Source of the DNA: a phage | Strand: one strand, 5' to 3' | Sequence record: PZ386956.1 | Length of the DNA: 53,024 nt | Part shown: piece after piece, positions 42,004-49,879 of the stretch | Layout: each line of letters opens with the position of its first letter | Numbering within the stretch: the stretch's first letter is position 1 | Notes under the pieces: generated by a model | Seen by the model: the letters and a program-made list of their open reading frames with translations, nothing else | Database searches by the model: none | What the model was told of the DNA's origin: nothing | Program-made: the position numbers and the translations under genes

Positions 42004-44512
42004 TATTCTCGGTCTGAAATACTTTAAGCCAGAAGGGATTCCCCAAGTCTTCAAAGATATGAAGCGCTGGGCTATCTTTGAGCTGACGTACGAAGACGAG
42101 ACCCTCGAAGTTCAATCCAAACCTAAGAAACCTGCAAGAGCGCCATCAGGCCGTTCCTTCAGCACAACAGTGCCTGAAGAGTGGATGACTTTCGACGACG
42201 CCCTGACACGTTGTATCCGCAATCGTGAAATGAAGATTAAAGCTGTACAGGGTAACATCACCTTTGTGCCGGCTTTGATTGTTCCTCGCCAGTGGTACTT
42301 TGTTGACCTGGACAACCATGATGATAATCCAGACATTGAAGCTACCCACAAAGCGATAATTGAGGGGACTCGTGGCGCTTATGCTGAGACGTCAATCTCC
42401 GGCAAAGGGCAACACATTGCAATCCCTTTACCCTGGACTGCAGCAACATCCAAAGAGAAAGACGAACAGCTGGACATCAAAATCCAGAAGGCTGAGATGT
42501 TCCTGGTAATGACAGGCAATGTATTGAGCGAGTTCAATGCTAATCCTGTTTCAGCCCGTGAATGGCATGCAGCAATTGAGAAGTTCTTTCTTGAATCAAG
42601 CGCACCTGACATTGATGTTGAGTTTGAGCAAGACGAAGACCGTGGCGAAGAGTATGACAAAGAGCTATACGAACAGTTAGCCGACAATACTCGCTGGGCG
42701 CTTGAACATTATCTTAGCGACTATGCACCAGACGGTGTTGGTGTGAGTAATGACGGTTCCGAACGTTTAAGCCGCATACTCAAAGACTTGCTTCGTGTAA
42801 CCCGTAACTATGAAGTTACACAACGCATCTTCATGGCCAGCAAAGCTGCAGCATATGAAGGCCGCAGACCAAGTCGACATAACCTGTCTGTTGATAAGTA
42901 TCATCAGTGGTTCAGTCGTGTCGGTAAGACTGTGCTGAAAGAGATGCAACGTGACGGCTTATTCGTTAAGACCAAGTTTGCTCTTGACATCAACAAAGAG
43001 TTAGCCAAGAATTCAGGTGTCTCCCTGGCTGAGAACGTTGAGTTCAAGGTCAACGACGACATTCTGCCTTCTGATGTATTCGTCAGGACGGCCCCGTCCG
43101 GGTTTAAACGGCTTATTGCTGAGATACAGGATAACATATCTCCTGCTAACAGGGTTAACGACTATGCCATCGGCACAGCTCTTAACATCCTGAGCAACTG
43201 CGCCGGTCGCAAGTATGTTTGTCCAGTAGGTGGTCATGCTAACTTCCTGGTAACCAACATCATTCTTGTGGGTGGTTCATCAATCGGTAAATCCCTGTAT
43301 ACCGAAATGTTCCCACAAATCCAGGCAAGTTTACCTGACACATCACCTATCAGCCTTAACCGTATCCCAAGGGAACAGACTTTTGCAACCAGGACGTTTG
43401 CTGAACTGATGTCCAACCCGTCATACCATTCAGTTCAGTTGTTCTATCCTGAATTTGGTCTGGCTTTAGGTTCAGGCTTACGCATGAATCCTAACAACCC
43501 GGACAACTTTCAGAAAGCTCTGATGGACGCTTCAACCAAGCGTAAGGTTGGCGGTATACTGACAGGTATCAAACGTGCTAATGCTGACAATGATGTTAAG
43601 ACTGTAAGCGAACCGTGCTACTCTATCCTGGGTGACTCAACTCAAGAGCTTATCCTTGACAACACCCGGAAGCAAGACTTCTCAAGTGGCTTTTTGCCCC
43701 GCTTCCTGTTCATCCCGAACTATGAGCGAGCGGAGTTTGCCAAACCTGAGAAAGTAGGACGTCGCCAGCAGATTCGCCGTACATCCTTTTCAAAGGAGCT
43801 GATTGAGAAGCTGGAAGCAATCGCTTATGTGAATGCTATCCCGCCTAACGGTAAACTAAGGCATGACCCGATTCCTATTTACGACGAATCGGATGATGAC
43901 GACTTCCTGTACGAGTACCAGTGCAATATTAATGACATGCGCCAGTATTACAGGGACAACGAAGTAGCATCCGCCTTTGTGGGCCGAATGGGTGAGTATG
44001 TATTCAACATAGCAGCACTGATTGGTTTACTCGACAACTGGGATGCTCCTGTAATGACCAGGGACAACATTGAATGGGCTTACAAATACGTTCTTCGCTG
44101 TATAACCGCCTGGGTCAATAACACAAGCAGAATAGTCGCACCTCCGACTACCAACGCCGAAGTAGTGGACGGCTTCCTCAAAGTCTACAGGGACATTTTG
44201 GCCCTTTACACCAAAAGAGGCTGGAACGGTATTGTTAAGCATTATCCTGAAGGTGTTGTAAGAAGCTTACGGGAAGACCATCTGAAAATGAACGGGCTTA
44301 GCATATATGCTATCCGGCAATCATTAAGTTGGTTCAAGTCCAATTATGGCTTTAACATAACCGCTAATAACAAGGTTATTGACGGTATGTTGCAGGATAT
44401 GATTGACCAGGACTATTTAGCAGTCCAAATATACAAACCCACAAGAGGTAAATCGGCAAATATCTACTGTTTAACTGAACGGGGATACGACGAAGCCAAG
44501 AAACTTAAGTAA
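41978..44512 (+). CDS. DNA primase-helicase (AEP prim-pol domain fused to SF3/D5-type helicase)
   Basis: 844 aa; N-terminal AEP motifs (FVDLDNHD with DxD; SGKGQHIAI with His), C-terminal P-loop VGGSSIGKS. Confidence 0.8.
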   Translation: MTMTSQPSDILGLKYFKPEGIPQVFKDMKRWAIFELTYEDETLEVQSKPKKPARAPSGRSFSTTVPEEWMTFDDALTRCIRNREMKIKAVQGNITFVPALIVPRQWYFVDLDNHDDNPDIEATHKAIIEGTRGAYAETSISGKGQHIAIPLPWTAATSKEKDEQLDIKIQKAEMFLVMTGNVLSEFNANPVSAREWHAAIEKFFLESSAPDIDVEFEQDEDRGEEYDKELYEQLADNTRWALEHYLSDYAPDGVGVSNDGSERLSRILKDLLRVTRNYEVTQRIFMASKAAAYEGRRPSRHNLSVDKYHQWFSRVGKTVLKEMQRDGLFVKTKFALDINKELAKNSGVSLAENVEFKVNDDILPSDVFVRTAPSGFKRLIAEIQDNISPANRVNDYAIGTALNILSNCAGRKYVCPVGGHANFLVTNIILVGGSSIGKSLYTEMFPQIQASLPDTSPISLNRIPREQTFATRTFAELMSNPSYHSVQLFYPEFGLALGSGLRMNPNNPDNFQKALMDASTKRKVGGILTGIKRANADNDVKTVSEPCYSILGDSTQELILDNTRKQDFSSGFLPRFLFIPNYERAEFAKPEKVGRRQQIRRTSFSKELIEKLEAIAYVNAIPPNGKLRHDPIPIYDESDDDDFLYEYQCNINDMRQYYRDNEVASAFVGRMGEYVFNIAALIGLLDNWDAPVMTRDNIEWAYKYVLRCITAWVNNTSRIVAPPTTNAEVVDGFLKVYRDILALYTKRGWNGIVKHYPEGVVRSLREDHLKMNGLSIYAIRQSLSWFKSNYGFNITANNKVIDGMLQDMIDQDYLAVQIYKPTRGKSANIYCLTERGYDEAKKLK

Positions 44513-44516
44513 AATC

Positions 44517-44566
44517 AAGGGCTTATGTAGTAAAATACGTAAGCCCTTATTTTATATACTCTTTTT
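44517..44566 (+). terminator. terminator-like hairpin after primase-helicase gene
   Basis: AAGGGCTTA-(14 nt)-TAAGCCCTT followed by T-rich ATTTTATATACTCTTTTT. Confidence 0.45.
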
Positions 44567-44568
44567 GC

Positions 44569-44902
44569 TCCGGTAGACTAGTTATGGAATAAATAAACCG
44601 TGTTTTTCGAATTAAGTGCACTTAAGCTACTGTTTTATATACTCTTTTCTTTTTACATGAATTAGTAAATATATGGAGCCCTTTATAAAGAAAAAGGGGG
44701 GTAATAAGGGGATACAAGTACCGGATAAAAGGGGTATATATTTATTTATTATTATTATTATTATTATATATTATTAATTATATTAGAAGTAATAAAAACA
44801 GCTACTTAGAGGCGTCTATATGTATGATCCGGTTTATCTCTTTATTAATATCAGAACCGGATGAAAAAAAATTACGCCGGCGAAAAAAAATAAAAAACCG
44901 GA
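44569..44902. promoter_or_regulatory. putative replication-origin region: ACCGGA iteron-like repeats, AT tract, A-tracts
   Basis: Five ACCGGA/TCCGGT copies (44569, 44720, 44828, 44856, 44897), 8-bp IR ATCCGGTT/AACCGGAT, palindrome CGCCGGCG, two A8 runs; no ORF. Confidence 0.35.
44735..44786. repeat. pure A/T tract with (ATT)n microsatellite
   Basis: About 52 nt of only A/T including TTATT(ATT)6-like run. Confidence 0.7.
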
Positions 44903-45026
44903 CTGATAAATAATTCGTAGGCATGTCTAAAGCCAGGCGTGGCAAGCTTCGGTGATATTTACTATGTTATTGTATGTTAGTGTGCGTTATAATATATTTA
45001 TTATTCAACAGATGAGTTGTGCAACT

Positions 45027-45533
45027 ATGGATCCAATTGTAAAAGTATTTGAAGGTAAAAATATCACATTTTCATCAATTAAGAGGGGTACCAAAATGGC
45101 ATCCCTCATTGTTGTTAAAGGAAGCGATTTAGCTAAAGCGCTGGGCTACAGCTACGCGGAAAAACTTTATAAAAGGTTAGACAGCGATTATAAAATTACT
45201 GATGACAAAGGAGCAGTATGGGTAACTGAACCTGGTATTTATCAGGCTATATTCGGTTCGCAGCTTGAATCAGCTAAAGCATTTCAGCGCTGGGCATACG
45301 AAGAAGTATTTCCCACCATTCGTGGGAATGGTTATTACGTTACACCAGAGCTTCAACCAGTGCTGGATCTACTGTCTGATGAAATAGACTTACTACGTGC
45401 ATATGCTACAGCTGACTGCCACGGAAGAGCAAGGCTTAAGTCAAGAATTATGACGATATGGAAAAAACAAGTAGAAAATGGTAACTCTTTGGACCGCGTA
45501 GTCCAGATTTTAAAAGGAAACAGTGCATGGTAA
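45027..45533 (+). CDS. Bro-N domain protein
   Basis: Bro-N signature (VFEGKNITF...SLIVVKGSDLAKALGY...GIYQAIFGSQLESAKAFQRWAYEEVFPTIRGNGYY); start could also be 44952 or 45012. Confidence 0.65.
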   Translation: MDPIVKVFEGKNITFSSIKRGTKMASLIVVKGSDLAKALGYSYAEKLYKRLDSDYKITDDKGAVWVTEPGIYQAIFGSQLESAKAFQRWAYEEVFPTIRGNGYYVTPELQPVLDLLSDEIDLLRAYATADCHGRARLKSRIMTIWKKQVENGNSLDRVVQILKGNSAW

Positions 45534-45958
45534 ATATTCGTGTTATTGGCCAGAACTTTGAGAGAAAGATGGCTAAAAAATTCAACGAATCTTTTGGACT
45601 TGACTGCCAGCGTAACCTGCAGCAATCAATAAATGGCGGGGATGACTTGCTTGGTATACCGTTTTTCAGCGTTGAACTGAAGAAGCACAAGACCAAGTCT
45701 ATCGGAACATGGTGGAGACAGTGTGCGGCATCGGCAAAGGCTCAGAACAAGATGCCGGTACTGATATACGAACTACCAAGAAAACAGCCTACCGTGGTGA
45801 TGAATAAGGCTGATGTGATTGACTGCTTTCCAAGTGGCACGACTTTTAACGAGGCATCGAACCGCCTCTTTGTGGGTCTAGTAGAATTAACATGGGAACA
45901 ATTTTGCCGGGTCTACAACTATTACGTTGCGCCCGGCACTCAATATCACGTCAATTAA
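45527..45958 (+). CDS. VRR-NUC-like PD-(D/E)xK nuclease (putative)
   Basis: 143 aa; D...E-x-K arrangement (GDDLLGIPFFSVELKK) typical of small phage nucleases/resolvases; overlaps Bro-N stop. Confidence 0.45.
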   Translation: MVNIRVIGQNFERKMAKKFNESFGLDCQRNLQQSINGGDDLLGIPFFSVELKKHKTKSIGTWWRQCAASAKAQNKMPVLIYELPRKQPTVVMNKADVIDCFPSGTTFNEASNRLFVGLVELTWEQFCRVYNYYVAPGTQYHVN

Positions 45959-46140
45959 TCTTGTTTCAGCTCGTCACAAATAACACGCTGATTTTTGGCA
46001 GGGATAATACCAAGATTCAGTAAGGTGTATGGACTATCGGCGGCACATTGTTCAACGGTAGTCCATTCAGGTTTGGATTCAACAATTTTGTAACTACAAT
46101 CATGAGTAGCCACACATGTTGCCAGGATTAAGCCAATCAC
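45955..46140 (-). CDS. small hypothetical protein (hydrophobic N-terminus, possible lipoprotein)
   Basis: 61-aa ORF, GTG start overlapping upstream stop (GTGA); N-terminus MIGLILATC. Confidence 0.4.
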   Translation of the reverse strand: MIGLILATCVATHDCSYKIVESKPEWTTVEQCAADSPYTLLNLGIIPAKNQRVICDELKQD

Positions 46141-46316
46141 AAGTAATCGCCTTCAACCAGGAACTCAAACAATTGGTTGTAGACGTTGCAACCTTTAGCG
46201 AAAGAGCTTTCAGCAGGTTTACCATCGCGGACGATCATCATATACTCACCGCCATGGATGTCCACCCAGTATTGCATGCCACCTTTGACCGGGTTACGTT
46301 GTAAGAATTTAAACAT
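46137..46316 (-). CDS. small hypothetical protein (59 aa, not in ORF track)
   Basis: ATG with AAGGAG RBS 6 nt upstream, TAATG-coupled to upstream gene and GTGA-coupled to downstream gene; reads MFKFLQRNPVKGGMQYWVDIHGGEYMMIVRDGKPAESSFAKGCNVYNQLFEFLVEGDYL. Confidence 0.45.
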   Translation of the reverse strand: MFKFLQRNPVKGGMQYWVDIHGGEYMMIVRDGKPAESSFAKGCNVYNQLFEFLVEGDYL

Positions 46317-46561
46317 TATTTGCTCCTTATTCCAAGTTTATTCAATAGCCAAATTGTCATGTCAACCCAGGTTAACGGTACAGTTTTCGGGGGTTGATAA
46401 TTCCAGCAGCTTGCAGTTCTTTGTATTTCTGCTTGGCGCCGCTCCGCTTCGCGTAATACCGCATCGTCAGAAGTGCCGGCAGAAAAAAGATCGGTAACAC
46501 CAGATAAATCGCGTTGATTAACACGTCGAGCAATGTCATATAAATCATCCTTAGAAAACAT
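46316..46561 (-). CDS. hypothetical protein
   Basis: 81-aa ORF in early leftward cluster. Confidence 0.45.
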   Translation of the reverse strand: MFSKDDLYDIARRVNQRDLSGVTDLFSAGTSDDAVLREAERRQAEIQRTASCWNYQPPKTVPLTWVDMTIWLLNKLGIRSK

Positions 46562-46700
46562 AAGCCAATACCATAAGAATTATCAGAAAGATCCCAACCA
46601 GCTTCCTCATGGCCCGACCTTCAGCATATGCAGGATTCACAACAGAATACTCAACAACATGTTTACAGCGGACCATAAGGCCTCCACTTGTGGGTTAATT

Positions 46701-46737
46701 CAATCATGAGGACTTTTGGCAAATCCTCATTGTTGAA
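46701..46737 (-). repeat. conserved intergenic hairpin, copy 1
   Basis: Plus strand CAATCATGAGGACTTTTGGCAAATCCTCATTGTTGAA, immediately 3' of the stop of gene 46738..46941. Confidence 0.55.
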
Positions 46738-46941
46738 TCACTCCATCATTACCTGAACTATTATTATACACTCTTTATTGAAGCGGGTAAATACCTTTCC
46801 TCCATTGGTGCGTTTAGCCCCAGATTTTAGAGCTGACTGGCACCAGACATGCCACTCCTCAACTGTCAAGAATTTTTGCTCAGCTTTGGGTGGTAGTCCA
46901 TTGGCAAGGTCTACCGTAGTAAATTTGACCAGCGGCATCAC
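46738..46941 (-). CDS. hypothetical protein
   Basis: 67-aa ORF, ATGA-coupled to upstream gene. Confidence 0.4.
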   Translation of the reverse strand: MMPLVKFTTVDLANGLPPKAEQKFLTVEEWHVWCQSALKSGAKRTNGGKVFTRFNKECIIIVQVMME

Positions 46942-47327
46942 TTAACCTCAAATTTTGACTCGTCATATTCCGGATCAGTCACGTCCCGGGTAGCACAATT
47001 TTTGATTGCCTCCCAGTAACGTTGGGCGTCATCGCCATCGACATAAACTGTCCAGTGGCCGTAACCACCTTCAAATCTGTCCCAGGCTTGTTCCCAGACT
47101 TTGCCATCTTCCAGCTTGTACCAAGTTGGACGACTGTCAAACTCGCGGATTGGATGGTACCCCATCAAAGGATTCATCAGGTCAATAATGTCTTCCCGAC
47201 TAATCTCCTGGTTCTCCCACAACACCGTCATGAATTGCTCAAACTTGAAGGCGTTTGGCAGAACTTTGATGACTTCACCATCACGATATACGGTATAGGT
47301 ACCATCTTCGCATTTTGCACTGTACAT
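46938..47327 (-). CDS. hypothetical protein
   Basis: Start ATG 47327 (AGGAG RBS, MYSAKCEDG...); track first Met at 47360 lies inside hairpin copy 2. Confidence 0.5.
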   Translation of the reverse strand: MYSAKCEDGTYTVYRDGEVIKVLPNAFKFEQFMTVLWENQEISREDIIDLMNPLMGYHPIREFDSRPTWYKLEDGKVWEQAWDRFEGGYGHWTVYVDGDDAQRYWEAIKNCATRDVTDPEYDESKFEVK

Positions 47328-47353
47328 GTTTCTCTCTCCTATTGATATAATTT

Positions 47354-47394
47354 CAATCATGAACTATCACAACTTTGGATAGTTCATTGTTGAA
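47354..47394 (-). repeat. conserved intergenic hairpin, copy 2 (compensatory stem)
   Basis: CAATCATGA-ACTATC-acaacttt-GGATAGTT-CATTGTTGAA: same flanks as copies 1 and 3 but a different, still complementary, stem. Confidence 0.55.
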
Positions 47395-47395
47395 A

Positions 47396-47569
47396 CTATA
47401 CTAACTTTGTTGCGATCTGAATTGTCAGCCGGAAATCTTCCATCAAGTTATCAAACTCTTTGGAACCGCCAACCGCATCAGATATTTGATCTTTCACGAT
47501 TTGGGCATTTGATTCCAGTAATTCAATCAGGTGCGCCAATTCGTCTTCAGTCAATTTCAGATCTTTCAT
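47396..47569 (-). CDS. hypothetical protein
   Basis: Start ATG 47569 overlapping upstream stop (ATGA); 57 aa. Confidence 0.4.
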   Translation of the reverse strand: MKDLKLTEDELAHLIELLESNAQIVKDQISDAVGGSKEFDNLMEDFRLTIQIATKLV

Positions 47570-47823
47570 AATGCATCCACCCAAGCCATAACTTTTGCCA
47601 GTCTTACAACGTCTTCATGGTCCCGATCGCCATCAGAAAATTCGCTGGCGATGATACCCATAATTGACGCCAGATTCATGTTGATGATGTACGAGTGTTC
47701 CCGCACTTCATCAATTCCTGAATCTATCACCAATTCCGCAAATTCCTGCGAACCTTCATCCCATTCAGCCCAATACTGCTCAGCATAAAAGTCCAGTTCT
47801 TTTTTCATCTCAATATCAGTCAT
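47566..47823 (-). CDS. hypothetical acidic protein
   Basis: 85-aa ORF, acidic. Confidence 0.45.
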   Translation of the reverse strand: MTDIEMKKELDFYAEQYWAEWDEGSQEFAELVIDSGIDEVREHSYIINMNLASIMGIIASEFSDGDRDHEDVVRLAKVMAWVDAL

Positions 47824-47828
47824 TTTGA

Positions 47829-47987
47829 TTACTCCTCAGAACCTGAAAATTTGTCGTCAATGGTTTCAACGATATAATCAAGAGTTGAAGTGTGAGAACT
47901 ATCAGAAAAAGTGCCCATCTTCTCTAACTCAATCATCATATCCCGCAAAGCCATCGCCTGGTCTTTGGTCAGTTTGATTTTAAGCAT
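47829..47987 (-). CDS. hypothetical protein
   Basis: Start ATG 47987 (GGAG RBS, MLKIKLTKDQ...); 52 aa; track start 48029 lies inside hairpin GATGGCACT-acttg-AGTGCCATC. Confidence 0.35.
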   Translation of the reverse strand: MLKIKLTKDQAMALRDMMIELEKMGTFSDSSHTSTLDYIVETIDDKFSGSEE

Positions 47988-48051
47988 GTTTCTCTCCTGT
48001 TGATTGTGAATAATTTCAATTGATGGCACTACTTGAGTGCCATCTCAAAAA

Positions 48052-48621
48052 TTACTCTTCAGTTTCTTGTGCTTCAGTTTCAGGTTTTTCTTCAGTCTCA
48101 GGTTTTTCGCCTGTTACTGATTTGCCCTCAGTCACTTTACCAGATTTTACATCATTACGGTAATATGACATATAGGATTGGACAACACGTTTTGCCCTAA
48201 TATCATCCGCTTCCATCCCACAGGCTTTCATGGCATCAGCCAGCGCCAATTTGGAATCTTCTTTGTCCATCAAGTTGTAATCCTTGAATACTGCATAGCA
48301 TGTATCCTTGGTTGACGGACCGGATGAAGTTTTGCGGGTGCCACCTGCAGATGCACGTGATGCCGCAACTTTGACCTCTTCAACTTCCAGTTGGTTAAGC
48401 TCATCAAACAAGGCTTTCACCAGCACTTCTTTGGAGTCTTTGACAGTTACAGAACTTTCATCATTAAGGGACTTAATCATCTTAATGATCTGGTTATTGG
48501 CAAAGTACTGAAGACTATCCATCTGCACTACAATAGTCCCAAGACTTTCAGTAGTCAGACCAGATTTTACAGACTCAACAGAAAAGGCGGAAGTCAGGTA
48601 AACATAGTTGATAGTAGTCAT
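48052..48621 (-). CDS. hypothetical protein with acidic PETEE-repeat tail
   Basis: Start ATG 48621 (MTTINYVYL...); 189 aa; C-terminus EKPETEEKPETEAQETEE. Confidence 0.5.
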   Translation of the reverse strand: MTTINYVYLTSAFSVESVKSGLTTESLGTIVVQMDSLQYFANNQIIKMIKSLNDESSVTVKDSKEVLVKALFDELNQLEVEEVKVAASRASAGGTRKTSSGPSTKDTCYAVFKDYNLMDKEDSKLALADAMKACGMEADDIRAKRVVQSYMSYYRNDVKSGKVTEGKSVTGEKPETEEKPETEAQETEE

Positions 48622-48677
48622 TGATGTATCCTCATTGATAGAATTTTTGATAAGTGTCAATCCTTGACAAGTAAGTC

Positions 48678-48715
48678 CAATCATGAGGACTTTTACCAAG
48701 TCCCCATTGTTGGAA
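48678..48715 (-). repeat. conserved intergenic hairpin, copy 3
   Basis: CAATCATGAGGACTTTTACCAAGTCCCCATTGTTGGAA immediately 3' of the stop of gene 48717..48890. Confidence 0.55.
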
Positions 48716-48716
48716 A

Positions 48717-48890
48717 TTACTTCAATTTATCCAGAATTGATTGGAGTAACTTGACCCTCACTTCCTGGTCTTTGACATCCCTTCCACTTTCCCTGTCATA
48801 TTCCAACAGGTCACTTTCCATAAATAAGGTTGTGTCCAGTTGGTCAACCAATAATTCCAGTTCTTCTTGGGACAATTCTAAAACTTTCAT
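48717..48890 (-). CDS. hypothetical protein
   Basis: Start ATG 48890 (AGGAG RBS, MKVLELSQEE...); 57 aa, acidic helical. Confidence 0.4.
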   Translation of the reverse strand: MKVLELSQEELELLVDQLDTTLFMESDLLEYDRESGRDVKDQEVRVKLLQSILDKLK

Positions 48891-48894
48891 CTTA

Positions 48895-49044
48895 TTACTC
48901 CTGATATTTAACAACTTGGGATTGGATAAAGTCAACACAATCTTCCACATCCATTGACTCAAAGTCTGGAACTGGACCAGTATTTATATTGACACACCAA
49001 AGCCCTTCATTGGTATCATACCAAAGTGTGTAGTTGTCCTTCAT
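48895..49044 (-). CDS. hypothetical protein
   Basis: Start ATG 49044 (AGAGGTG RBS, MKDNYTLWYD...); 49 aa; track GTG start 49098 is an alternative. Confidence 0.35.
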   Translation of the reverse strand: MKDNYTLWYDTNEGLWCVNINTGPVPDFESMDVEDCVDFIQSQVVKYQE

Positions 49045-49428
49045 AATAGTCACCTCTTGTATTAGTTTCCAGTTGTGACTACTGTTACCAATAGTCACTG
49101 GTTGAAACTATTACTAGTGTTACTATCAACAAGAAACATGTTACCAAATTGTTAAAGAGCAAAAGGTACCATTGACATCTACCAGATGTACCTGTTGACT
49201 GGTTAAGTACTACCTACCCAAATTAAACCATACCAATACCCTCCAGACCAGTTGACTGGTCACTCAGTCATCACATTCAATAAATATATAATAGTCCAAT
49301 CCCTCTTGATTGTACACCTTATATTTGTAAGTTTATGCAAGTTTTTAGAAATGATAATCACTTGCGGTTGAGAGTGGTTCTCATATACAATTGATATAGT
49401 TTCACATGTAATTACTCAACTCAAAATG

Positions 49429-49483
49429 GTCGGCAGGGGTTATAATAACATAGGGGTGCCACTCGAAGGAGCCGGCGAAATTA
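49429..49483. repeat. 55-nt imperfect direct repeat, copy A
   Basis: GGTCGGCAGGGGTTATAATAACATAGGGGTGCCACTCGAAGGAGCCGGCGAAATT; about 65-70% identical to copy B. Confidence 0.45.
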
Positions 49484-49604
49484 TTTCTAAAAATATAATT
49501 TCAATCTGAATTATAGACGCTTTGTACTATAACGGCCGAAGTAGTTCACCCGGTAATTGTATCAATCACAATAGTTACCAGAGTAATCATTTCAATTGAA
49601 ATAG

Positions 49605-49659
49605 GTGCGGCGGGGGGTAATTTCGCAAGGGTGCTACCTGCCAGGAGCCAGCAAAATTT
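49605..49659. repeat. 55-nt imperfect direct repeat, copy B
   Basis: GGTGCGGCGGGGGGTAATTTCGCAAGGGTGCTACCTGCCAGGAGCCAGCAAAATT followed by T-rich run; shares GGGTGC.AC...AGGAGCC.GC.AAATT core with copy A. Confidence 0.45.
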
Positions 49660-49879
49660 TTTATTTTTTCTCTATTTTCTCCTTATCAGGACCAATCATC
49701 ATCAGATTGATACAACAGGAGCTAACCTTTTGCCTAACACAATAATAAGTGAAGCCCCTCTAAAATTTTTTTATATTTTTCGGAAATTGTGTAGACACTC
49801 ACTAAAAAGTGGTGTACTTTCTCTCCTCCACGCGCTATCATTAATGTGAATCATCAAACGGCCTCACGGTCTCCTACTT

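Follow-up and report, generated by a model that had tools for sequence, protein, structure and literature searches.

Hairpin-separated cassettes of small genes in a putative terminal-repeat operon of a Rosemountvirus phage, with two overlapping frames at the locus of a toxic homologue

What is encoded by the run of very small genes at positions 45955-49098 of the phage sequence PZ386956.1, and how might its expression be organized? The whole 53,024-nucleotide (nt) stretch, hereafter the window, resembles a complete genome laid out from a 482-amino-acid (aa) open reading frame (ORF) that starts at base 1. Its region 45900-49200 has 94-96% nucleotide identity to Rosemountvirus genomes (emhyr, birk, BP63, JEP7 and others) and about 75% identity to Loughboroughvirus (ZCSE2, S144) and fHy-Eco03-like phages; by sequence similarity, the source is a Rosemountvirus (BP63-like) myophage, a phage of Salmonella/E. 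coli. Many Rosemountvirus and Loughboroughvirus phages are being isolated for the biocontrol of Salmonella and E. coli, and the cluster is their main block of genes of unknown function. A preliminary description, made from the sequence alone, had seen here a leftward early cluster of about ten tiny, translationally coupled ORFs of the kind in which phages usually encode host-takeover and anti-defence factors. Our analysis divides the cluster into five cassettes separated by long hairpins, and we consider it probable that these form a terminal-repeat operon with a role in host takeover.

On the minus strand, the cluster fits 13 genes, which encode 41-189 aa each, into 3.1 kb; the 12 loci are numbered here g1 to g12 from right to left, with two overlapping genes, g10a and g10b, at the tenth locus (Table 1). 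On sequence grounds it is a leftward small-gene operon equal to "cluster E" of phage S144, and close relatives, in which part of it has been screened, already carry an annotation of 12 genes for this region, every one hypothetical. The GC content of the cluster is 41.7%, against 46.6% in the remaining genome, and a likewise lower GC content is reported for cluster E of S144 (PMC7432712). Gene starts were picked by Shine-Dalgarno sequence and by annotation in relatives. The numbers of variable columns at codon positions 1/2/3 were 3/2/23 in g1, 8/6/43 in g3, 21/13/37 in g6, 17/14/40 in g7, 45/30/59 in g8 (12 genomes), 17/11/24 in g9, 20/12/33 in g11 and 18/3/43 in g12; since variation concentrates at position 3, the genes tested appear to be real and under purifying selection. 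This test covered genes with ungapped orthologues; g2, g4 and g5 had no suitable ones, and their calls rest on the annotation of relatives and, for g4 and g5, also on PHROG matches. Gene g9 has a conserved N-terminal motif, KHVVEY..NP.Y, followed by a C-terminal hydrophobic stretch, and conservation of the motif argues that its 41-aa form is genuine. In g12, the N-terminus MIGLIL..C and the C-terminus CDELK are conserved.

Much of what had first been described is confirmed by these gene models. The minus-strand ORF run lies at 45955-49098, beside a nuclease gene and a divergent regulatory region, its dense packing with Shine-Dalgarno sequences is borne out, and its ORFs are conserved and annotated in relatives. 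The count of about ten was too low, and a second gene inside the 81-aa ORF, g10b, had been overlooked. Coupling by overlaps was correctly seen inside the five cassettes, where junctions are at most 5 nt or overlapping, but does not extend across the four spacers of 61-95 nt with their hairpins. The characterization as mostly acidic suits g1-g7 (net charge -5 to -15) and fails for g8-g12, g8 being basic. A 59-aa ORF at 46137-46316, said to be missing from the ORF track, is real (g11); it had merely fallen below a length cut-off and is called in GenBank relatives. A possible hydrophobic peptide of 19-41 aa at about 46551-46676 is likewise real, as the 41-aa g9. The neighbour described as VRR-NUC-like is a PD-(D/E)XK nuclease gene that matches PF24608 (Table 1), with no match to VRR-NUC itself; PF24608 PDDEXK_15 is a family that we take to belong to the VRR-NUC superfamily.

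The five cassettes are [g1 g2], [g3], [g4 g5 g6], [g7 g8] and [g9 g10a/b g11 g12]. Junctions within cassettes measure +4, +5, -4, -1, -11, -1 and -4 nt, and the spacers between cassettes 95, 64, 68 and 61 nt (n=4). Every spacer (4/4) contains one long hairpin, and a further one lies in the leader of g1, with z scores from -4.1 to -6.1 (Table 1). All follow one plan, in which a lower stem of 5-12 base pairs (bp), a small internal loop and an upper stem of 9-12 bp are closed by a terminal loop of 3-9 nt; the 15-22 bp of stem together with the stacked internal loop give 17-24 positions, or about two helical turns. The lower stem is frequently UAGUUUCAA / UUGAAAUUA, and the internal loops are 2x2 (CA/GA), 3x4 or 5x5. 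The same architecture occurs at the equivalent spacers of eight relatives. Of the 50 hairpins that satisfied the search criteria across nine genomes, 23 have an internal loop of CA opposite GA and 8 one of TGA opposite AATT. We found 25 distinct 5' arms of the upper stem, about 15 of them at intergenic family members (for example ATGGGGACTT, ATGACAACTT, ATGCGGTAT, GTGACAATTA and AAGTCTCGG), so that the sequence of the upper stem is free yet always complementary. The g3/g4 hairpin is kept in relatives with the alternative upper stems GATGGCACT, GATGGCATC and CAGACCTCT, and the leader hairpin shows the compensatory changes GTGAC/GTCAC, GAGAC/GTCTC and GTGGC/GCCAC. The coding sequence of g12 itself contains one more hairpin built in a similar way (6 + 9 bp), at 46080-46124 on the minus strand, which is conserved in birk and AV127.

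MAFFT misaligned the variable stems of these paralogous hairpins, and anchored parsing and a covariance model were used instead. The model, built from five hairpin copies and run over the whole window on both strands, matched hairpins of the cluster only, namely the three type-A copies and, weakly, the leader copy (E 0.06), while it missed the type-B copy at 48008-48057; sense matches scored 65-68 bits against 21-27 bits for their antisense echoes, with nothing elsewhere in the 53-kb window. In the covariance alignment, 97.7% of cells are paired, a somewhat inflated figure, the alignment having been fitted to the model and including antisense echoes, whereas partner columns that were slid out of register pair at 20-50%. 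Changes on both sides of a pair occurred in 50 cells, compared with 14.7 +/- 3.1 in shuffles, none of which reached 50 (0/500). Hairpins satisfying the search criteria numbered 50 in the sense and 15 in the antisense orientation, and G.U pairs made up 73 of 661 pairs (11%). Among 73 IMG/VR matches to the conserved flanks, a self-complementary middle of 10-12 pairs was present only in five, from this phage group, and the others had at most four pairs there. This covariation, strand bias, use of G.U pairs and IMG/VR pattern indicate that selection maintains the pairing of the hairpins as mRNA-sense RNA and that they are specific to this lineage. A search of Rfam returned no similar RNA family, with two sub-threshold microRNA matches only.

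By their architecture, the hairpins most likely act in the mRNA, as RNase III-type processing or 3'-end-stabilizing signals, an assignment drawn from the overall build and not from the base pairs of proximal and distal boxes. The RNase III sites of phage T7 have larger, asymmetric internal loops, whereas the loop here is mostly a symmetric 2x2 CA/GA. The T7 sites (R0.3-R1.3, with R1.1 as the model substrate) are likewise intercistronic in a same-strand array of small genes, which may be early here too, and they share the two-turn duplex with an internal loop; in such a duplex, the loop lets only one strand be cut, and a hairpin that protects the 3' end is left behind (PMC1540722). The lower-stem and loop sequences are conserved here as a family, and they could be the mark of a phage-specific partner instead of RNase III. 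Hairpin promoters of the N4 type were also considered and set aside: no ORF exceeds 985 aa, so the window encodes no giant virion RNA polymerase, and S144 is described as having no phage RNA polymerase (PMC7432712).

Comparison with relatives showed that the positions of the hairpins coincide with the ends of rearranged segments. In SE13, an insertion of 345 nt, which brings an extra 99-aa gene and an extra hairpin, lies precisely at the g8/g9 hairpin (46730-46740). In AV127, the whole g4-g5-g6 cassette is missing, with breakpoints at 47357, within the g6/g7 hairpin, and at 47985, in a repeated segment that runs from hairpin to Shine-Dalgarno sequence after the g3/g4 hairpin. Blocks of similarity to S144 stop at 46749, 47325, 47985 and 48721, and indel breakpoints relative to both SE13 and S144 fall at 48721, by the g2/g3 hairpin. 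The breakpoints in SE13, AV127 and S144 are thus at hairpins or no more than about 25 nt away. In the fHy-Eco03-like lineage, the g3 cassette follows the g7/g8 cassette and not g1/g2. In these alignments, the conserved hairpin flanks emerge as the joints at which cassettes have been gained, lost and reordered.

This coincidence also bears on a different explanation, in which the hairpins are terminators or attenuators paired with promoters and each cassette is its own transcription unit. Such elements, promoter-early stem-loops (PeSLs), are known from T4-type phages; they combine a sigma-70 promoter with a stem-loop between small early genes and mediate modular shuffling. Like the hairpins here, they recur as structured elements in intergenic regions, flank small early genes that are not essential, and mark joints of insertion, deletion or replacement between close relatives (PMC2839356). 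In addition, the 95-nt g2/g3 spacer has a promoter-like TTGTCA-16-AAAAAT past its hairpin, and promoters were predicted in two spacers by the S144 annotation. However, as intrinsic terminators the hairpins had to be rejected, with no U-tract after any of them and none called by the terminator scan. Moreover, three of the four spacers (61-68 nt) leave only 15-25 nt between the hairpin and the next start codon, and therefore no room for a promoter downstream. Most copies here also differ from PeSLs in having no sigma-70 promoter, and there is no sequence similarity between the two. We consider this explanation unlikely, and signals that act within a common message remain our preferred interpretation of the hairpins.

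The position of the cluster in the genome was assessed by homology to relatives with known ends. Two of them were deposited with their true ends, vB_SalM_Sz (57,020 bp), with an identical 4263-bp repeat, and fHy-Eco03 (57,011 bp), with a 3699-bp repeat that was mapped by PhageTerm (PMC8145870). Both repeats start a short way upstream of the nuclease gene, take in the entire small-gene cluster and end in the regulatory gap, and restriction mapping of S144 placed a physical end in the gap adjoining its cluster (PMC7432712). In the window, the equivalent segment begins with GGCGAAAAAAAATAAAAAACCGG at 44879 and finishes with ...CCTGCCAGGAGCC at 49649; these sequences are the same as the termini of vB_SalM_Sz, and the end sequences of fHy-Eco03 are homologous but diverged. 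By this homology, the cluster would sit within the direct terminal repeat of the phage, which would also hold about 550 nt of regulatory DNA and the genes for a Bro-N protein and the PDDEXK nuclease. The repeat is not visible as such in the window because the window is a collapsed assembly, and it is longer than in vB_SalM_Sz and fHy-Eco03 because the Bro-N/Ant gene at 45027-45533 is included. This anti-repressor-like gene (PF02498, plus strand) is also present in birk and emhyr and absent from Sz, SE13 and AV127, and the repeat content therefore varies inside the genus. Just beyond the right end of the repeat, at 49653-49672, we observed AAAATTTTTTATTTTTTCTC, a near-inverse of the GGCGAAAAAAAATAAAAAACCGG segment at 44879-44901; the ends of vB_SalM_Sz and fHy-Eco03 have the same near-inverse arrangement, and the pair may represent recognition or cutting signals of the terminase.

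A consensus scan placed a candidate sigma-70 promoter upstream of g1 (Table 1). It is present in seven of seven aligned relatives, with an invariant -35 element, a -10 element of TATTAT, CATAAT or TATAAT, and equal spacing. As further promoters, an invariant TACAAT block and ACTTGCA repeats were examined and discarded, since neither has a matching -35 or -10 element at a distance that would work. The repeats, ACTTGCA followed by ACTTACA 10 nt apart at 49326-49342 (minus strand), lie directly upstream of the candidate -35 element, and in most relatives both copies read ACTTGCA; they may be an operator or the binding site of a phage factor.

We propose that the host RNA polymerase most likely transcribes the cluster as a polycistronic mRNA from this promoter, which would be located within the repeat, with some 240 nt between it and g1 and some 330 nt between it and the right end of the genome. 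The five-cassette message, with a hairpin in the leader and one between successive cassettes, would be processed or stabilized at its 3' ends as in the T7 early operon. The promoter-proximal products would be seven acidic soluble proteins. The distal, conserved block would yield a 41-aa membrane protein, the soluble 81-aa g10a and 55-aa membrane g10b products, a 59-aa protein and a four-cysteine protein of 61 aa. These products would take over or modify the host right after DNA entry.

At the g10 locus, the annotations of relatives differ: SE13, ZCSE2 and fHy-Eco03 call the 81-aa g10a, whereas birk and S144 call the 55-aa g10b, which is predicted to have an N-terminal transmembrane helix and a basic tail. 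The frames, starts and stops of both are intact in 20 of 20 sequences, including eight metagenomic contigs, with amino-acid identities down to 56%; the third frame contains 43 stop codons across the same set. Homologues of g10a form 18 protein clusters of 81-84 aa (one entry has 75 aa). Within the 165-nt overlap, variable columns number 26/17/17 of 55, which is low and nearly flat by codon position, compared with neighbouring genes of the same lineage breadth, where 58-91% of third positions vary (48% in g1; g3 in close relatives only). Past the g10b stop, the remaining segment of g10a has codon-position variation of 10/2/13, a clean signature of the g10a frame. Amino-acid identity is 0.82 for g10b versus 0.74 for g10a, and synonymous/non-synonymous codon differences number 103/171 versus 53/258. 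Given the g10b protein and the codon usage of the phage, the probability that the g10a frame would be open is 0.02-0.03 per lineage. At about 18 third positions where T would create a stop in g10a, T never occurs, while G, C and A vary; in the other genes of the cluster, 31.7% of third positions are T. In addition, g10b has a purine-rich Shine-Dalgarno sequence of its own (AAGGA), which is kept or improved in all lineages. The best reading of these patterns is that g10 is an embedded, out-of-frame gene pair.

A single product at g10 seems doubtful by comparison. Either only the 55-aa g10b would be made, with an 81-aa frame that is open by chance, or a -1 slip at AAC CCC CGA AAA C would fuse the membrane domain to the g10a tail. 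The better conservation of the g10b frame and its absorption of most synonymous change would fit both forms, and for the second, a minor alternative, the stretch ATCAACCCCCGAAAACTGTACC is invariant in all sequences and the fused product would likewise explain the coding signature of the g10a tail. However, g10a is open from a conserved ATG throughout despite its low chance in each lineage, T is avoided at the stop-prone positions, and the invariant CCCCCGAAAAC does not conform to the canonical slippery heptamer, X XXY YYZ. Out-of-frame embedded genes are familiar from other phages, as in phiX174 E within D and lambda Rz1 within Rz. The g10 pair resembles these in that a small gene for a membrane protein, equipped with a ribosome-binding site of its own, lies wholly inside another in the +1 frame, and differs in that its products are predicted ones; in addition, as annotated in relatives, lysis genes form a cassette elsewhere in this phage (PMC7432712).

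An embedded pair at g10 bears on published toxicity data. Kasurinen et al. screened hypothetical genes of fHy-Eco03 for toxicity in E. coli, and g05, the one clearly toxic gene, was by far the most toxic (read ratio 0.003) and halted growth when expressed from pBAD30 (PMC8145870). Its product, Gp05, and that of g10a are homologues with 68% identity. The authors modelled the N-terminus of Gp05 on RecG and suggested interference with RecG (PMC8145870). However, the cloned 246-nt ORF also holds the entire g10b together with its ribosome-binding site, so the toxic product is ambiguous, and the small membrane protein g10b is at least as plausible a killer. As a lead for a toxic protein, Gp05 and the RecG proposal need re-examination in view of this second, conserved membrane protein on the cloned fragment.

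More broadly, we tentatively suggest that the hairpins are a new, lineage-specific class of RNA signals between cistrons, targets for cutting or binding by RNase III or a phage factor, which punctuate a pre-early terminal-repeat operon and shuffle its cassettes, and that the toxicity of Gp05 comes wholly or partly from the out-of-frame 55-aa membrane protein; taken together, we regard these claims as possible rather than probable. If they are true, the g10 locus would be a two-product host-killing module. Cluster E of S144 and g03-g11 of fHy-Eco03 are the same genes in the same place, of low GC content, hypothetical and covered by the terminal repeat, while gene content and cassette order differ between lineages. 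No cassette structure and no second g05 frame are described in the S144 paper or the available sections of the fHy-Eco03 paper, and the annotations simply disagree on the frame. The word "hairpin" occurs nowhere in the S144 paper, and none was met in those sections of the fHy-Eco03 paper, where no word search was made. Within these sources, neither the arrangement in cassettes bounded by hairpins nor the overlapping gene at the locus of toxicity appears to have been reported for S144 and fHy-Eco03.

With regard to function, early host takeover is the most likely role of the cluster, judging by its position and by analogy. In T5, the pre-early genes lie in the left terminal repeat. SPO1 has a 24-gene host-takeover module within its terminal redundancy (PMC10531801). 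As in both phages, dense small genes without homologues, at least one of them host-toxic, lie here in a long direct terminal repeat; there is no similarity of sequence or fold to either, early timing and host shut-off are putative for this cluster, and the repeat measures about 4-5 kb, against 13 kb in SPO1 and 10 kb in T5. The sole experimental support for a takeover role is the strong toxicity of a relative's g10 locus. The idea of host-takeover or anti-defence genes put forward in the preliminary description therefore gains from the terminal-repeat position, the neighbouring regulatory region and the toxic g10 homologue, and loses from the lack of a family match among the proteins scanned and from homologues that are mostly non-toxic. 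Of the checks it had named, a toxicity screen has been carried out on a relative. In the published screen, Gp05 arrested the growth of E. coli, but the cluster homologues g03, g04, g06, g08, g09 and g11 were non-toxic and g10 of fHy-Eco03 was weakly toxic in one assay (PMC8145870), and structure prediction for g3 and g7 led to no fold match with a known protein.

Pfam returned nothing above threshold for the cluster proteins scanned, and PHROGs only families of unknown function, with g9 in the category "moron, auxiliary metabolic gene and host takeover". PADLOC gave no match among the cluster proteins other than g4, g6 and g9, NCBIfam none among those other than g9, g10b and g11, and sequence searches of the PDB none for g3, g5, g7, g10a and g12. 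The AlphaFold2 model of g3 has two domains at moderate confidence (pLDDT 68), that of g7 reached pLDDT 91.9 and pTM 0.80, and fold searches with both models found no neighbours. Homologues of g3, g5, g7 and g10a are restricted to this phage group, those of g3 forming 26 clusters and those of g5 being small proteins recovered from a search of 1.8 billion representative proteins; an IMG/VR search for more distant loci likewise returned this group only. For g1, distant homologues with 44-59% identity occur in T-even phages, as a 58-aa ORF in the e-segB hyperplastic region. Homologues of g3 were seen by liquid chromatography-tandem mass spectrometry in particle preparations of fHy-Eco03 and S144 (PMC7432712 for S144); since the preparations held obvious non-structural enzymes, we read this as abundant expression and not as a structural role.

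Another possible role is rather improbable in our estimate, namely that the distal block (g9, g10b and g12) serves superinfection exclusion or envelope modification, like Imm and Sp of T4 or Llp of T5, with the proximal acidic genes dispensable. All relatives indeed conserve two membrane proteins of small size along with a cysteine-rich one whose N-terminus is hydrophobic, the proximal genes vary between relatives, and the PHROGs category of g9 would suit such a role. However, g12 has no canonical lipobox or signal peptide, and it was rejected as a lipoprotein of Llp/Cor type: its short, hydrophobic N-terminus has 8 residues before Cys9, no Lys or Arg, T or V at -1, and no lipobox [LVI][ASTVI][GAS]C. 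Library scans showed no similarity to Imm, Sp, Llp or Cor, and the strong toxicity at the g10 locus (PMC8145870) fits a host-directed effector at least equally well.

Several points weigh against an early host-takeover operon punctuated by RNA hairpins. The terminal repeat of this phage is deduced from homology and not from reads. The promoter is weakly indicated by consensus and conservation, with a scan unenriched over shuffles (17 sites versus 16 +/- 4 in shuffled sequence), and a literature search returned nothing on transcripts, their timing or RNA ends in these phages. The pairing percentage of the covariance alignment is somewhat high for the reasons given above, and RNase III enters by way of architecture. 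The scanned proteins resemble no known host-takeover or anti-defence family, the models of g3 and g7 no known fold, and most tested homologues are non-toxic in E. coli. The least favoured explanation, that the inverted repeats work at the DNA level, forming cruciforms or palindromes that bind protein and serving, for example, the adjacent PD-(D/E)XK nuclease or recombination or replication of the repeat, has in its favour a terminal-repeat location beside the "resolvase" gene and the coincidence with recombination breakpoints, but is very improbable given a strand-specific structure whose G.U pairs become A-C mismatches on the opposite strand, the excess of sense over antisense hairpins, antisense covariance scores about 40 bits lower, and a free upper-stem sequence, which fits selection for pairing and not a protein-binding sequence.

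The result is local and well defined, and leaves the general understanding of phage biology unchanged. For this group, the content of the terminal repeat and the hairpin-bounded cassettes indicate where genes could be deleted or swapped, and the hairpins offer a testable handle on early mRNA processing.

Table 1. Positions of the cluster genes, hairpins and flanking features in the window
Feature	Position	Strand	Description
g1	48895-49044	-	49 aa, acidic; first cluster gene; phrog_5461; in all relatives examined
g2	48717-48890	-	57 aa, acidic, accessory; annotated in birk and emhyr; close relatives only
g3	48052-48621	-	189 aa; two domains and acidic repeat tail; core; phrog_9997
g4	47829-47987	-	52 aa, acidic, accessory; phrog_35350; not in AV127
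g5	47566-47823	-	85 aa, net charge -15; phrog_35114
g6	47396-47569	-	57 aa, acidic; phrog_29626; start overlaps g5 stop (ATGA)
g7	46938-47327	-	129 aa, acidic alpha+beta protein
g8	46738-46938	-	66 aa, basic; core; phrog_35966
g9	46551-46676	-	41 aa, predicted tail-anchored small membrane protein; core; phrog_10979 "membrane protein"
g10a	46316-46561	-	81 aa; homologue of toxic fHy-Eco03 Gp05
g10b	46372-46539	-	55 aa, embedded in g10a in +1 frame; annotated in birk and S144
g11	46137-46316	-	59 aa, accessory; phrog_34345; annotated in relatives
g12	45955-46140	-	61 aa, GTG start, four conserved cysteines; core; phrog_32337
g1 5' leader hairpin, type C	49063-49110	-	7-bp lower stem, 5x5 loop, 10-bp upper stem; folding free energy (dG) -28.8, z -5.3
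g2/g3 hairpin, type A	48676-48714	-	z -5.05; covariance model 64.9 bits
g3/g4 hairpin, type B	48008-48057	-	internal loop TGA/AATT; z -4.5
g6/g7 hairpin, type A	47345-47401	-	12 + 10 bp; z -6.1; covariance model match
g8/g9 hairpin, type A	46696-46740	-	z -4.1; covariance model 67.6 bits sense vs 27.2 antisense
Candidate sigma-70 promoter	49288-49316	-	-35 TGTACA, 17-bp spacer, -10 TATTAT; consensus scan
Inferred direct-terminal-repeat equivalent	44879-49649		4771 bp; end sequences homologous to Sz and fHy-Eco03 termini
PD-(D/E)XK nuclease gene ("resolvase")	45527-45958	+	convergent; PF24608 PDDEXK_15, E 8.7e-16; phrog_244

Some further observations concern individual genes of the cluster. The g11 protein is 100% identical in fHy-Eco03, where its flanking genes are 65-85% identical, and it is absent or replaced in other relatives; an identity exceeding that of its flanks suggests a recent horizontal exchange of g11 alone. 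The acidic KPETEE tail of g3 is encoded by an 18-nt tandem repeat at 48072-48108, and its length differs among relatives, in some of whose records it is labelled repeat_region. The stop codons of g12 and of the convergent nuclease gene overlap in a common TTAA at 45955-45958, and since there is no terminator between the two genes, transcripts of the cluster would run antisense into the nuclease gene.

Around the inferred ends of the repeat, a GC-rich element some 47 nt long (GCCGGCnCC...GCACCC...ACCCCnGCCGnACC) was observed in two related copies, at 49604-49650 and 49428-49476 in the minus sense. They are conserved across genera within the A/T-rich regulatory region, and the copy at 49604-49650 abuts the inferred genome end. 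On the other side, the primase gene is followed by a strong intrinsic terminator with a 13-bp stem and a T-run (44509-44555) and then by a (TTA)13 microsatellite (44746-44785) before the inferred start of the repeat.

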